Position numbers and translations under genes: made by a program. The notes beneath the pieces are model-generated. The model made no database searches. It saw nothing but the letters and a program-made list of their open reading frames with translations, and was not told the origin of the DNA. Below are positions 1,375-35,586 of a stretch of 64,000 nucleotides of DNA, one piece after another. The stretch's first letter is position 1, and every line of letters starts with the position of its first letter. The stretch lies in assembly GCF_058153355.1 (NCBI RefSeq), contig NZ_CM177019.1. One strand, written 5' to 3'.

Positions 1375-2800
1375 TAATGCCGATCAGTTAAGGATCAGTT
1401 GACCGATCCAGTGGCTGTGTAAGAATCCGGAAACGCTCACTTGTTTCCGGATTTTTTTATGCACATTGGACAGGCTCTTGATCTGGTATCCCGTTACGAT
1501 TCTCTGCGTAACCCACTGACTTCTCTGGGGGATTACCTCGACCCCGAACTCATCTCTCGTTGCCTTGCCGAATCAGGTACTGTAACGCTACGCAAGCGCC
1601 GTCTTCCCCTCGAAATGATGGTCTGGTGTATTGTTGGCATGGCGCTTGAGCGTAAAGAACCTCTTCACCAGATTGTGAATCGCCTGGACATCATGCTGCC
1701 GGGCAATCGCCCCTTCGTTGCCCCCAGTGCCGTTATTCAGGCCCGCCAGCGCCTGGGAAGTGAGGCTGTCCGCCGCGTGTTCACGAAAACAGCGCAGCTC
1801 TGGCATAACGCCACGCCGCATCCGCACTGGTGCGGCCTGACCCTGCTGGCCATCGATGGTGTGTTCTGGCGCACACCGGATACACCAGAGAACGATGCAG
1901 CCTTCCCCCGCCAGACACATGCCGGGAACCCGGCGCTCTACCCGCAGGTCAAAATGGTCTGCCAGATGGAACTGACCAGCCATCTGCTGACGGCTGCAGC
2001 CTTCGGCACGATGAAGAACAGCGAAAATGAGCTTGCTGAGCAACTTATAGAACAAACCGGCGATAACACTCTGACGTTAATGGATAAAGGTTATTACTCA
2101 CTGGGACTGTTAAATGCCTGGAGCCTGGCGGGAGAACACCGCCACTGGATGATACCTCTCAGAAAGGGAGCGCAATATGAAGAGATCAGAAAACTGGGTA
2201 AAGGCGATCATCTGGTGAAGCTGAAAACCAGCCCGCAGGCACGAAAAAAGTGGCCGGGACTGGGAAATGAAGTGACAGCCCGCCTGCTGACCGTGACGCG
2301 CAAAGGAAAAGTCTGCCATCTGCTGACGTCGATGACGGACGCCATGCGCTTCCCCGGAGGAGAAATGGCGGATCTGTACAGTCATCGCTGGGAAATCGAA
2401 CTGGGATACAGGGAGATAAAACAGACGATGCAACTGAGCAGGCTGACGCTGAGAAGTAAAAAGCCGGAGCTTGTGGAGCAAGAGCTGTGGGGTGTCTTAC
2501 TGGCTTATAATCTGGTGAGATATCAGATGATTAAAATGGCGGAACATCTGAAAGGTTACTGGCCGAATCAACTGAGTTTCTCAGAATCATGCGGAATGGT
2601 GATGAGAATGCTGATGACATTGCAGGGCGCTTCACCGGGACGTATACCGGAGCTGATGCGCGATCTTGCAAGTATGGGACAACTTGTGAAATTACCGACA
2701 AGAAGGGAAAGGGCCTTCCCGAGAGTGGTAAAGGAGAGGCCCTGGAAATACCCCACAGCCCCGAAAAAGAGCCAGTCAGTTGCTTAACTGACTGGCATTA
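1375..2800 (+). mobile_element. IS4 copy 1 (1426 bp), nested inside the IS66-family element
   Basis: 18-bp imperfect terminal inverted repeats (taatgccgatcagttaag / reverse complement taatgccagtcagttaag). 12-bp target duplication ctctccgggaag at 1363..1374 and 2801..2812. Length matches IS4 exactly. Confidence 0.9.
1459..2787 (+). CDS. insG: IS4 transposase InsG (442 aa)
   Basis: ORF 1441..2787; product [36 protein letters not shown]... matches IS4 InsG as I recall it; start trimmed to the MHIGQ methionine. Confidence 0.9.
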
Positions 2801-3193
2801 CTCTCCGGGAAGGCCTAAAGGGTGCCTGAATTATCCTCCTGAATTCAAACAACGACTCATAGAAGCATCATTCCAGCCAGGTGTTTCAATTTCCAGACTG
2901 GCCCTGGACAATGGTATTAATGCCAATCTGTTGTTCAAATGGCGTCAGAAATGGCGGCAGGGGAAGATAAAATTGCCATCATCAGAATCAGGCAGAGAAT
3001 CTCAGTTAATTCCTGTCACTATTGATGCCCAACTCCCAACTGCTCCGGCTAATGAGCCACTGACCGCAAGACCGTCAGTAACACCGGAAATACACAGCAT
3101 CTCCTGTGAGATTACGTTCAGAAACGGCACCCTTCGGTTGAACGGGGCAGTGAATGAAAATCTGCTGTCCTTGCTTATACAGGAGCTGAGACG

Positions 3194-3541
3194 GTGATAT
3201 CTCTCCCTGCAGGTTCGCGTATCTGGCTGGTTGCAGGTATCACCGATATGCGAAATGGCTTTAACGGCCTGGCCTCAAAAGTTCAGAACGTCCTGAAGGA
3301 TGACCCGTTCTCCGGGCATCTGTTCATCTTCCGCGGACGCCGGGGTGACCAGATAAAAGTGTTGTGGGCTGACAGTGACGGACTGTGCCTCTTCACCAGA
3401 CGCCTGGAGCGGGGCCGCTTCGTCTGGCCGGTCACCCGTGACGGCAAGGTGCACCTTACTCCGGCCCAGTTATCCATGCTTCTTGAGGGCATCGACTGGA
3501 AACACCCGAAACGAACGGAACGCGCTGGCATCCGCATATAA
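3194..3541 (+). CDS. tnpB: IS66-family TnpB (orf2), 115 aa
   Basis: ORF 3194..3541; MISLPAGSRIWLVAGITDMRNGFNGLASKVQ... is typical of IS66 Orf2; ATGA overlap with the upstream tnpA stop. Confidence 0.85.
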   Translation: MISLPAGSRIWLVAGITDMRNGFNGLASKVQNVLKDDPFSGHLFIFRGRRGDQIKVLWADSDGLCLFTRRLERGRFVWPVTRDGKVHLTPAQLSMLLEGIDWKHPKRTERAGIRI

Positions 3542-3560
3542 CCCGTTGTAAAGTGAGGAT

Positions 3561-33532: not shown

Positions 33533-33555
33533 AAAATTATCCTCTTCAGGAGGAG

Positions 33556-34981
33556 TAATGCCGATCAGTTAAGGATCAGTTGACCGATCCAGTGGCTGTG
33601 TAAGAATCCGGAAACGCTCACTTGTTTCCGGATTTTTTTATGCACATTGGACAGGCTCTTGATCTGGTATCCCGTTACGATTCTCTGCGTAACCCACTGA
33701 CTTCTCTGGGGGATTACCTCGACCCCGAACTCATCTCTCGTTGCCTTGCCGAATCAGGTACTGTAACGCTACGCAAGCGCCGTCTTCCCCTCGAAATGAT
33801 GGTCTGGTGTATTGTTGGCATGGCGCTTGAGCGTAAAGAACCTCTTCACCAGATTGTGAATCGCCTGGACATCATGCTGCCGGGCAATCGCCCCTTCGTT
33901 GCCCCCAGTGCCGTTATTCAGGCCCGCCAGCGCCTGGGAAGTGAGGCTGTCCGCCGCGTGTTCACGAAAACAGCGCAGCTCTGGCATAACGCCACGCCGC
34001 ATCCGCACTGGTGCGGCCTGACCCTGCTGGCCATCGATGGTGTGTTCTGGCGCACACCGGATACACCAGAGAACGATGCAGCCTTCCCCCGCCAGACACA
34101 TGCCGGGAACCCGGCGCTCTACCCGCAGGTCAAAATGGTCTGCCAGATGGAACTGACCAGCCATCTGCTGACGGCTGCAGCCTTCGGCACGATGAAGAAC
34201 AGCGAAAATGAGCTTGCTGAGCAACTTATAGAACAAACCGGCGATAACACTCTGACGTTAATGGATAAAGGTTATTACTCACTGGGACTGTTAAATGCCT
34301 GGAGCCTGGCGGGAGAACACCGCCACTGGATGATACCTCTCAGAAAGGGAGCGCAATATGAAGAGATCAGAAAACTGGGTAAAGGCGATCATCTGGTGAA
34401 GCTGAAAACCAGCCCGCAGGCACGAAAAAAGTGGCCGGGACTGGGAAATGAAGTGACAGCCCGCCTGCTGACCGTGACGCGCAAAGGAAAAGTCTGCCAT
34501 CTGCTGACGTCGATGACGGACGCCATGCGCTTCCCCGGAGGAGAAATGGCGGATCTGTACAGTCATCGCTGGGAAATCGAACTGGGATACAGGGAGATAA
34601 AACAGACGATGCAACTGAGCAGGCTGACGCTGAGAAGTAAAAAGCCGGAGCTTGTGGAGCAAGAGCTGTGGGGTGTCTTACTGGCTTATAATCTGGTGAG
34701 ATATCAGATGATTAAAATGGCGGAACATCTGAAAGGTTACTGGCCGAATCAACTGAGTTTCTCAGAATCATGCGGAATGGTGATGAGAATGCTGATGACA
34801 TTGCAGGGCGCTTCACCGGGACGTATACCGGAGCTGATGCGCGATCTTGCAAGTATGGGACAACTTGTGAAATTACCGACAAGAAGGGAAAGGGCCTTCC
34901 CGAGAGTGGTAAAGGAGAGGCCCTGGAAATACCCCACAGCCCCGAAAAAGAGCCAGTCAGTTGCTTAACTGACTGGCATTA
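33556..34981 (+). mobile_element. IS4 copy 2 (1426 bp), same orientation as copy 1
   Basis: Same termini as copy 1; its own 12-bp target duplication cttcaggaggag at 33544..33555 and 34982..34993; the transposase ORF is identical at the protein level to copy 1. Confidence 0.9.
33640..34968 (+). CDS. insG: IS4 transposase InsG (442 aa)
   Basis: ORF 33622..34968; identical translation to the ORF at 1441..2787. Confidence 0.9.
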
Positions 34982-34983
34982 CT

Positions 34984-35586
34984 TCAGGAGGAGATATTTA
35001 ACATCATTGCCGCCTGGGTGCGATTTTTGACTTCCAGACGGCGATACAGTGATTCCAGATGCGCTTTCACCGTTCCGGTACTGATATTCAGCGCCCTGCC
35101 GATCTCTTTATTTGATTCGCCCGCCGCTAACATGGTTAAAATCTCCCGCTGGCGGGCGCTTAACGATTTGAGATCTTTAATGTCCTTTTCCGGCGTCGTT
35201 CGCCAGTCTCCAGGCAGAAACATCATCCCCATCGCCGCACTATTGACCGCCAACGCAAATGTCTCGACGGTTGAATCACGAGGCACAATGGCCAGCACAT
35301 TAAAATGAATAACTTCCTGTAACCACCGTTTGTTGCAATCCGTCGCCGTAATTAACACCTTAACCTCAGGAAATTGCACCACGGTTTTTTGCAGCAACCA
35401 GTAGCAAAACTCACCATCCTGATCGCCATCGAGCATCACTAAGGCTTCAGGGTAACTTTCCAGCTTTTGCCATAACTCGTCTGCCTGACTGGCCCCCTGA
35501 ATACTCACTCCTGGAATACGATGCTGTAAACTGATTTTCATTCCATGAATAAATATTGACTGCCTGTCAAACATGACTATTTGCAT
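34984..35586 (-). CDS. yhjB: LuxR/FixJ-family response-regulator-like protein YhjB (200 aa)
   Basis: ORF 34984..35586; C-terminal LuxR HTH; the stop codon lies inside the right IS4 target repeat. Confidence 0.85.
   Translation of the reverse strand: MQIVMFDRQSIFIHGMKISLQHRIPGVSIQGASQADELWQKLESYPEALVMLDGDQDGEFCYWLLQKTVVQFPEVKVLITATDCNKRWLQEVIHFNVLAIVPRDSTVETFALAVNSAAMGMMFLPGDWRTTPEKDIKDLKSLSARQREILTMLAAGESNKEIGRALNISTGTVKAHLESLYRRLEVKNRTQAAMMLNISS

Follow-up and report, generated by a model that had tools for sequence, protein, structure and literature searches.

Two identical IS4 copies in direct orientation around the haem-uptake and acid fitness islands: probable separate insertions at recurrent IS4 targets

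Insertion sequences are known to remove the gad island from the E. coli chromosome. In evolved K-12 lines, IS5 (insH) mediated a 14-kb deletion (Creamer et al., bioRxiv 10.1101/063271) in which gadXW, mdtFE, gadE, hdeDAB, yhiDF and slp were lost as one block, giving a Gad-negative strain. More generally, direct IS copies recombine so that the intervening DNA is deleted, at about 4.5 × 10⁻⁵ per genome per generation overall, whereas inverted copies produce inversions (Lee et al. 2016; PMC5009759). In the same K-12 mutation accumulation lines, IS1, IS2 and IS5 took part in recombination events; IS4, present there as a single copy, took part in none and contributed 8 of the 758 new insertions (PMC5009759). 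A second kind of relevant system is the composite transposon, exemplified by Tn10 (IS10) and Tn5 (IS50), where two IS4-family copies enclose passenger DNA.

The window analysed here, a stretch of 64,000 nucleotides from contig NZ_CM177019.1 (assembly GCF_058153355.1), belongs to an E. coli chromosome and carries two IS4 copies, A and B, around the same island. As in the K-12 case, an IS lies at the yhiS end, but that case involved a single flanking copy of IS5, no chu genes and an observed deletion, whereas the window has two direct IS4 copies, 32 kb of DNA including chu, ccp and treF, and a deletion that is only predicted. With the K-12 accumulation lines the locus shares the class of mechanism; the difference is that two natural IS4 × IS4 inversions, described below, are found at the treF-yhjB site. 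In contrast to Tn10 and Tn5, whose copies are inverted, the two IS4 copies here are direct, share no outer duplication and enclose native DNA in place, and nothing shows movement as a unit. The pair is ordinary insertion-sequence biology, in line with what is already known of IS4 and of IS-driven rearrangement. The two copies and their target duplications are:

1375–2800, plus strand: IS4 A, 1426 bp, transposase at 1441–2787
1363–1374 (left) and 2801–2812 (right), unstranded: target duplication of IS4 A, exact 12-bp pair CTCTCCGGGAAG
33556–34981, plus strand: IS4 B, 1426 bp, equal to copy A, transposase at 33622–34968
33544–33555 (left) and 34982–34993 (right), unstranded: target duplication of IS4 B, exact 12-bp pair CTTCAGGAGGAG

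Both copies are IS4, the type element of the IS4 family, by length, ends, transposase and target duplication alike. Each is 1426 bp long and has imperfect 18-bp terminal inverted repeats, beginning TAATGCC, that match at 16 of 18 positions. The transposase is of the DDE type, encoded by a single ORF; it scores 304 bits against the NCBIfam IS4 model NF033592 (cutoff 115) and has all four residues of the Y-R-E-K motif (Y313, R316, E320, K327). Its differences from WP_000483767.1, G310A and R332L, adjoin this motif and lie outside it. Compared with 12 IS4 copies from E. coli genomes, the window element shows 2–8 mismatches per 1426 nt. The target duplication is 12 bp at A and B and 11–12 bp at eight further insertions, within the 11–13 bp expected of IS4.

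A first-pass annotation of this DNA had described two copies with the same transposase and the same orientation, offering 1.4 kb of direct homology and each flanked by its own intact 12-bp repeat. All of this holds. The encoded proteins are identical and without internal stop, and aligning 1375–2800 with 33556–34981 gives identity at 1426 of 1426 positions, both on the plus strand, with no divergence at all; the start-to-start distance is 32,181 bp. The repeats do differ, CTCTCCGGGAAG at A and CTTCAGGAGGAG at B. The transposase of copy A is 448 aa long in the NCBI annotation and 442 aa when read from the ATG at 1459.

What that annotation missed is that yhiS is not the neighbour of IS4 A. Copy A is nested in an IS66-family element (1256–5162), within tnpA at about codon 12, and yhiS begins at 5725. 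The parts of the host element are:

1256–1374, plus strand: left end, with terminal repeat GTAAGCG... and the first ~12 tnpA codons (ATG at 1340), from sequence reading and comparison with the empty site
2801–5162, plus strand: remainder, with the rest of tnpA to 3197, tnpB at 3194–3541 and tnpC at 3561–5132
ending at 5162, plus strand: right terminal repeat ...CGCTTAC, boundary set by the empty site
1248–1255 and 5163–5170, unstranded: 8-bp target duplication CTATAAGG, present once in the empty site of E200086

Three genes, the 8-bp duplication and the GTAAGCG terminal repeats place the host element in the IS66 family, and the NCBIfam models for TnpA, TnpB and the IS66 transposase all score above cutoff on it. 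The element is probably immobile, its tnpA being interrupted by IS4.

The DNA between the two IS4 copies amounts to 30,755 bp, as the earlier estimate of about 30.7 kb had it, and roughly 2.36 kb of this is the IS66-family remainder. The other contents are also those first described: yhiS, slp-dctR, chu, the acid fitness island, ccp (yhjA) and treF. The interval and its flanking genes read as follows:

228–1229, plus strand: ArsP-type permease gene, outside the bracket, the native gene nearest to the insertions on the left
5725–6948, plus strand: yhiS-like gene, intact, 407 aa
7194–7760 and 7916–8446, plus strand: slp and dctR, within 5725–8446
8507–17458: chu haem-uptake island, chuS and chuA on the minus strand, chuTWXYUV on the plus strand
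11564–11595: thermoregulator RNA 5' of chuA, in the chu island
17510–29896: acid fitness island core, with yhiD, hdeB, hdeA, hdeD, gadE, mdtE, mdtF, gadW, GadY, gadX and gadA
27117–27230: GadY sRNA, in the acid fitness island core
30044–31441, minus strand: ccp (yhjA)
31846–33495, plus strand: treF
33503–33532: hairpin ACAGCCAG...CTGGCTGT between a T-run and an A-run, in the convergent treF/yhjB spacer, read from sequence
34984–35586, minus strand: yhjB, intact, first native gene right of the bracket

The interval genes are intact and each has the length expected from the relative E200086; in the acid fitness island core this is true of every ORF. The interval is colinear with IS-free genomes over a single 24.8-kb piece of 99.3% identity. 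The permease gene matches NCBIfam transporter models weakly, under curated cutoffs; it is named 'permease' by annotation in E200086, and an identical product carries Pfam ArsP_1. The yhiD gene is missing from the gene list of the first-pass annotation, though it is present in the interval. The stop codon of yhjB (34984–34986, minus strand) falls inside the right copy of CTTCAGGAGGAG.

How the pair arose can be read by comparison with the IS-free chromosome of E200086, the nearest relative. There, CTATAAGG and CTTCAGGAGGAG each occur once and the genes, beginning with the permease gene and ending with yhjB, follow one another as in the window; removing IS4 B and one 12-mer in silico restores the empty treF-yhjB spacer of this genome. 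With high confidence, we read the IS66-family element, IS4 A and IS4 B as three simple insertions into the native chromosome, with no composite transposon. In this account the IS66-family element would have entered between the ArsP-type permease gene and yhiS, an IS4 would then have entered the 5' end of its tnpA, and the same IS4 variant would have entered the treF-yhjB spacer. The outcome would be a passive pair of perfect 1426-bp direct repeats 32,181 bp apart, which is not a mobile unit. The chu and acid fitness islands are bracketed because good IS4 targets happen to lie there, as a by-product.

Both targets are recurrent ones. Of 5,426 complete E. coli genomes, 23 have an IS4 inserted at exactly this point of the treF-yhjB spacer, and both orientations occur: 10 genomes have the window orientation, 11 the reverse (the contrast between L011 and L012) and 2 are rearranged. 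The 5' end of IS66-family tnpA is hit again in YL03, where IS4 interrupts another IS66 tnpA at the corresponding codon and has its own duplication. IS4 targets by sequence: an A-run is followed, after 3–7 bp, by a GC-rich 12-mer that becomes duplicated; dyad symmetry and a T-run on the far side are often present as well. Sites A and B fit this pattern. An A-run occurs ≤14 nt left of IS4 at all nine tabulated sites, against 6% in the background, in a sample that is partly biased since five of the sites were chosen for flank similarity to site A. A consensus drawn from hits H11–H30 is biased in the same way, these having ranked high by likeness to the site A flank, and unbiased sites were separated from them.

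None of this is new in kind. Strong target-arm specificity of subgroup IS4 has already been described (2008, PMC2266710), and the published targets resemble the sites here in their 12-bp duplications, the A-run on the left and, often, the T-run on the right. Use of one site in both orientations is likewise common to known IS4 targeting and site B. IS4 work of the 1980s reportedly found a single hotspot in galT, occupied in either orientation, and gave the target consensus as AAA-N20-TTT. In a literature search that was not exhaustive, we met no description of the treF-yhjB spacer or the IS66-family tnpA 5' end as specific hotspots.

The two rearranged genomes show what IS4 copies at the treF-yhjB site can do. 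In XH988 the junctions are glgP|IS4|yhjB and treF|IS4|glpD-side, the 12-mers CTCCTCCTGAAG and GACCCTTTGGCC are reciprocally swapped, the IS4 copies are identical at 1426 of 1426 positions, and about 102 kb are inverted, including the whole acid fitness island. In GN02350 the junctions are rraA|IS4|yhjB and zapB|IS4|treF, with CTCCTCCTGAAG and CACCTTGCGGTG reciprocally swapped, identical recombined IS4 copies and about 544 kb inverted. Because the 12-mers are swapped in both isolates, homologous IS4 × IS4 exchange does occur at this site, and about one in ten of the genomes with an IS4 there (2/23) has used it for a large inversion. Neither event is a deletion; each inverted the DNA between two oppositely oriented copies. 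Two genomes with the reverse orientation at site B have only one native flank, both being these inversions, and for the window orientation no complete E. coli genome has IS4 with only one native flank.

The arrangement invites other readings. On either side of the segment stands an intact IS4 with intact ends, the two transposase genes being identical and uninterrupted, and relatives in the IS4 family, IS10 and IS50, do build composite transposons; one could suppose that IS4-block-IS4 came, or can leave, as one 33.6-kb unit through the outer IS4 ends. We consider this extremely unlikely. The left outer flank is CTCTCCGGGAAG and the right one CTTCAGGAGGAG, and the duplication at each IS is a matched pair of its own. 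Between the copies lies native chromosome in its usual place, and on both sides the order agrees with IS-free relatives. Copy A is nested inside another IS, and IS4 transposition is rare in K-12 lines (8/758 new insertions; PMC5009759). As the origin of the structure a composite transposon is refuted, there being no shared outer duplication and the passenger DNA being native to the site; the earlier judgement, that each copy inserted independently and no composite was transposed, is confirmed by the separate duplications and by the colinearity with E200086. That the 33.6-kb segment, with chu, the acid fitness island, ccp and treF, might now function as a composite transposon or an amplifiable cassette is highly improbable as well; if it did, a hop to a plasmid or tandem amplification would spread acid resistance and haem uptake as a module. 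Selection could also be imagined to keep the arrangement as a switch, with reversible IS4-mediated amplification and loss of the block providing adaptive copy-number heterogeneity. Direct repeats do permit tandem amplification, and in certain laboratory settings cells benefit from losing the gad island (10.1101/063271), but a deletion cannot be reversed, both targets are generic IS4 hotspots occupied in unrelated strains, which suffices to explain the positions, and the closest relatives lack both insertions. Since they do, the arrangement is recent. A selected switch is very unlikely.

A different concern is that one or both IS4 copies could be an assembly artefact, a misplaced or collapsed repeat whose identity comes from consensus polishing. 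The perfect 1426/1426 identity would fit this, and short-read assemblies of the lineage break at the IS4 and IS66 repeats (exact-protein look-ups gave such contigs only), so that it is the window's assembly that places copy A. However, exact 12-bp duplications flank both copies at targets that fit the IS4 preference, and identical IS4 copies within one genome also occur in XH988 and GN02350. The clone matches SRR31441161 and GCA_043012465.1, and its exact permease allele is carried by further runs, SRR28786219 among them. A Logan contig assembled independently from short reads (SRR31441161) crosses the left junction of IS4 B, reading 26 nt from treF into the element, and a 28,386-bp NCBI draft contig, of which the last 11.7 kb were read and whose size implies a start at the right end of IS66, stops 5 bp before IS4 B. 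The contigs on either side of the IS66-family element stop 29 bp inside its ends. An artefact has, in our estimate, an almost negligible probability, and three simple insertions remain the preferred reading.

By textbook reasoning, exchange between IS4 A and IS4 B could delete or duplicate 32,181 bp: the copies are 1426 bp long, 100% identical and in direct orientation, as IS-mediated deletion requires. Homologous (RecA-type) exchange between them would delete the 32,181-bp unit at low frequency, and unequal sister exchange would, also at low frequency, yield its tandem duplication. What remained would be the permease gene, 119 bp of IS66, a single IS4 between CTCTCCGGGAAG (left) and CTTCAGGAGGAG (right), and yhjB. 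The deletion would take out gadE, gadWX, gadA, hdeAB and chu, and from what is established about the gad, hdeAB and chu genes the resulting cell would be acid-sensitive and haem-uptake-negative. The bracketed genes are presumably dispensable, to judge from the K-12 deletions and general knowledge.

The first-pass annotation had proposed that RecA-dependent recombination could delete or duplicate the block. This proposal is sound by textbook reasoning and gains indirect support from the IS4 × IS4 exchange at site B in two isolates, though these are inversions, and no deletion or duplication junction was found. A recombinant junction, with one IS4 between mismatched 12-mers, is absent from the window, where both copies keep their matched pairs; because both duplications are intact, no exchange has involved IS4 A or B since insertion. 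Block loss was not seen either, the other independent assemblies of the clone retaining the block. IS4 occurs at site A in 0 of the 5,426 complete E. coli genomes, which also lack the IS66-family element there, and complete genomes thus cannot serve to survey the deletion in the lineage. A count of 'genomes with a match' was dropped as proof of universal island retention, gadA cross-matching gadB.

The IS4 pair matters little beyond the lineage. If deletion variants arise, a single step could cost isolates of the clone glutamate-dependent acid resistance together with the HdeAB chaperones, the MdtEF efflux pump and the ability to take up haem, so that phenotyping could mislead and strains could attenuate in culture. 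More useful are the by-products of the analysis: the treF-yhjB hotspot for IS4, the large inversions that start from it, and the repeated targeting of IS66-family tnpA 5' ends.

Hairpins at the targets vary. Site A (z = +0.6) does not fold around its 12-mer, and neither do the IS66 site of YL03 and the intragenic site in gntP (z −0.4 to +1.4 for the three), whereas the MS6198_ibs site does so weakly (z = −1.0); the idea that IS4 always targets terminator-like hairpins was rejected as a rule, several sites not folding. At site B, glgP, yejO, mog and EC0880B the 12-mer is centred on a hairpin (z −1.6 to −6.0). The hairpin at 33503–33532 looks like a bidirectional terminator, and IS4 B lies 11 bp past it.

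The two IS4 copies are identical at all 1426 positions in a direct alignment of copy A (1375-2800) with copy B (33556-34981), and a repeat finder returns them as the sole long repeat family in the 64 kb, both on the + strand and 32,181 bp apart from start to start. Chance is no concern for two identical 1.4-kb sequences. Each copy is 1426 bp long, with terminal inverted repeats that agree at 16 of 18 positions and a single uninterrupted transposase frame, the same in both, that scores 304 bits against the NCBIfam IS4 model (cutoff 115); twelve annotated E. coli IS4 copies differ from it by 2-8 mismatches. 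A 12-bp target duplication accompanies each insertion: CTCTCCGGGAAG on both sides of copy A, CTTCAGGAGGAG on both sides of copy B. The first-pass annotation had reported exactly this, namely two copies in the same orientation at these coordinates, with identical transposases and a separate matched repeat each, and the nucleotide alignment it proposed as a check gave zero divergence.

Compared with the common E. coli allele WP_000483767.1, both transposases (1441-2787 and 33622-34968) have two substitutions, G310A and R332L, directly beside motif residues Y313/R316/E320/K327. Since this variant has inserted separately at two sites, each marked by a duplication of its own, we infer that it can still transpose.

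One point of anatomy needs correction: copy A does not adjoin yhiS but is nested in an IS66-family element, which the first-pass annotation had missed. To its right, IS66-family TnpA, TnpB and transposase are encoded, all above NCBIfam cutoffs, while the tnpA frame begins to its left, at 1340, and is interrupted at about codon 12. Comparison with E200086, the closest IS-free relative, bounds the element at 1256-5162 (2469 bp without the nested IS4), with terminal repeats GTAAGCG.../...CGCTTAC and a flanking 8-bp duplication, CTATAAGG. On either side, short-read contigs reach 29 bp into the element and stop, a sign that it may be multicopy in this lineage. The host element (1256-5162, excluding 1375-2812) looks mosaic and rare: tnpB and tnpC share ~97% identity with ISCro1 copies, but a megablast comparison of the first ~500 bp, holding the left terminal repeat and tnpA, with 5,426 complete E. 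coli genomes gave no match. The best full match to the first 848 bp (96.3%) is to Escherichia albertii plasmids from a bat. We also note an ORF at 2589-3197 that begins in copy A and continues in frame past the end of the IS4 into what is left of the IS66 tnpA, so that residues 81-200 match TnpA models; it is probably a chance IS4/IS66 fusion, and no exact product was found in the protein collection.

Window and E200086 align as one colinear piece with 99.3% identity across 24.8 kb. E200086 has a single CTATAAGG and, in the treF-yhjB spacer, a single CTTCAGGAGGAG, from which a history of three simple insertions into the native chromosome follows: that of an IS66-like element, whose tnpA later received an IS4 (site A), and that of a second IS4, which entered the spacer separately. 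No gene is broken at this second site (site B), since the yhjB stop codon lies within the duplicated 12-mer. As the origin of the IS4-block-IS4 structure a composite transposon is excluded, since the outer flanks do not match and comparison with E200086 shows a native context; this upholds the earlier view of independent insertions. Future mobilisation of the segment is improbable, with nothing to support it. An assembly artefact is unlikely: the junctions of copy A come from the window assembly alone, but the duplications are exact, and there are independent contig breaks as well as a junction read at copy B.

The DNA between the copies amounts to 30,755 bp, and all of its ORFs have the length annotated in E200086. 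The block and the RNA families of the window comprise:

IS66 remainder, ~2.36 kb of the block
yhiS-like gene (intact), slp, dctR, in the block
chuS, chuA, chuTWXYUV, in the block
11564-11595, shuA/chuA 5' UTR thermoregulator (Rfam, above gathering score)
yhiD, hdeB, hdeA, hdeD, gadE, mdtE, mdtF, gadW, gadX, gadA, in the block
21266-21337, ES205 sRNA, between gadE and mdtE (Rfam, above gathering score)
GadY, in place (Rfam)
ccp (yhjA), treF, in the block
63759-63824, rdlD antitoxin RNA (Rfam, above gathering score)

The rdlD, ES205 and thermoregulator matches are all expected for the region.

Direct IS4 copies would be expected to yield a 32,181-bp deletion or tandem duplication, which is textbook behaviour and a reasonable expectation for this window. 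Recombination between direct IS copies removes the intervening DNA, and in K-12 lines IS recombinations overall occur at ~4.5e-5 per genome per generation (PMC5009759); evolved K-12 has been seen to lose the gad island in an IS-mediated event (10.1101/063271). Because both 12-bp duplications are matched, neither copy has recombined since insertion. Run SRR31441161, from the same clone, has a Logan contig that begins within the IS66 right end, 29 bp from its edge, and is 100.000% identical to the window across 11.8 kb; another contig of the run continues from treF for 26 nt into copy B. The NCBI draft contig GCA_043012465.1 (28,386 bp) is 100% identical in the part read, its last 11.7 kb, and judged by size should correspond to the unique sequence that the repeats enclose, ~5165-33550. 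The block is present in every dataset of the clone reached, in short-read contigs that are unable to show minority junctions.

Exchange through IS4 at site B can be read from two more genomes, XH988 and GN02350, in which IS4 adjoins yhjB without having treF on its other side. XH988 has the junctions glgP-IS4-yhjB and treF-IS4-glpD-side, with one IS4 flanked by CTCCTCCTGAAG/GACCCTTTGGCC and the other by GACCCTTTGGCC/CTCCTCCTGAAG, and copies identical at 1426/1426 positions. This reciprocal signature indicates homologous exchange between inverted copies, inverting ~102 kb that includes the whole acid fitness island, with the partner IS4 downstream of glgP. GN02350 has rraA-IS4-yhjB and zapB-IS4-treF, with CTCCTCCTGAAG and CACCTTGCGGTG swapped between identical copies; its inversion (~544 kb, partner between rraA and zapB) presumably spans the replication origin region, taking K-12 gene order as a guide. 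The site-B IS4 was thus used for a large rearrangement in 2 of 23 site-B-occupied genomes, and these cases support the homologous exchange mechanism put forward in the first-pass annotation, for inverted copies only.

Site B is also a recurrent target. IS4 occupies the identical position in 10 complete E. coli genomes in the window orientation and in 11 in the opposite one, the same 12-mer being duplicated either way. As both orientations occur and the site is empty in the window's nearest relatives, it has seemingly been hit at least three times independently. The 5' end of IS66 tnpA likewise appears to be a recurrent target, because IS4 lies in two diverged IS66-family tnpA genes with its own duplication in each: in YL03 (4001-5426, duplication CCCCGGCGGCCC) it sits at the codon homologous to that in the window (1363-2812), the P-G/R-R-P stretch after K-K/N. 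At least nine records have IS4 and IS66 tnpA under the same match. Strong target-arm specificity of subgroup IS4 has already been described (PMC2266710). At 9/9 tabulated sites the 14 nt left of the duplication include an AAAA run, for which the background in the window is 6%. Five of the nine are biased, having been chosen because their flanks resemble that of site A; the three unbiased sites and the semi-biased YL03 site among the nine have the run as well, and so does the later-found rraA/zapB site. At the nine sites the duplicated 12-mer is usually GC-rich, often with a T-run beyond. Hairpin propensity is common at intergenic targets; a hairpin requirement was rejected, as it is absent at site A, the YL03 site and the intragenic gntP site.

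That the copies enclose the island is best explained as a side effect of good IS4 target locations. A selected switch is unnecessary, given that IS4 hotspot behaviour suffices. The arrangement is ordinary for a known insertion sequence and, the nesting of copy A apart, was correctly described; the recurrent hotspot and the two natural IS4 x IS4 inversions there add context.

In the K-12 derivative Origami2-DE3 the insG IS4 (1501-2926) lacks a matching 12-bp duplication, and a degraded IS66-family tnpC lies ~170 bp downstream, which hints at an old rearrangement of this copy or a deletion next to it.
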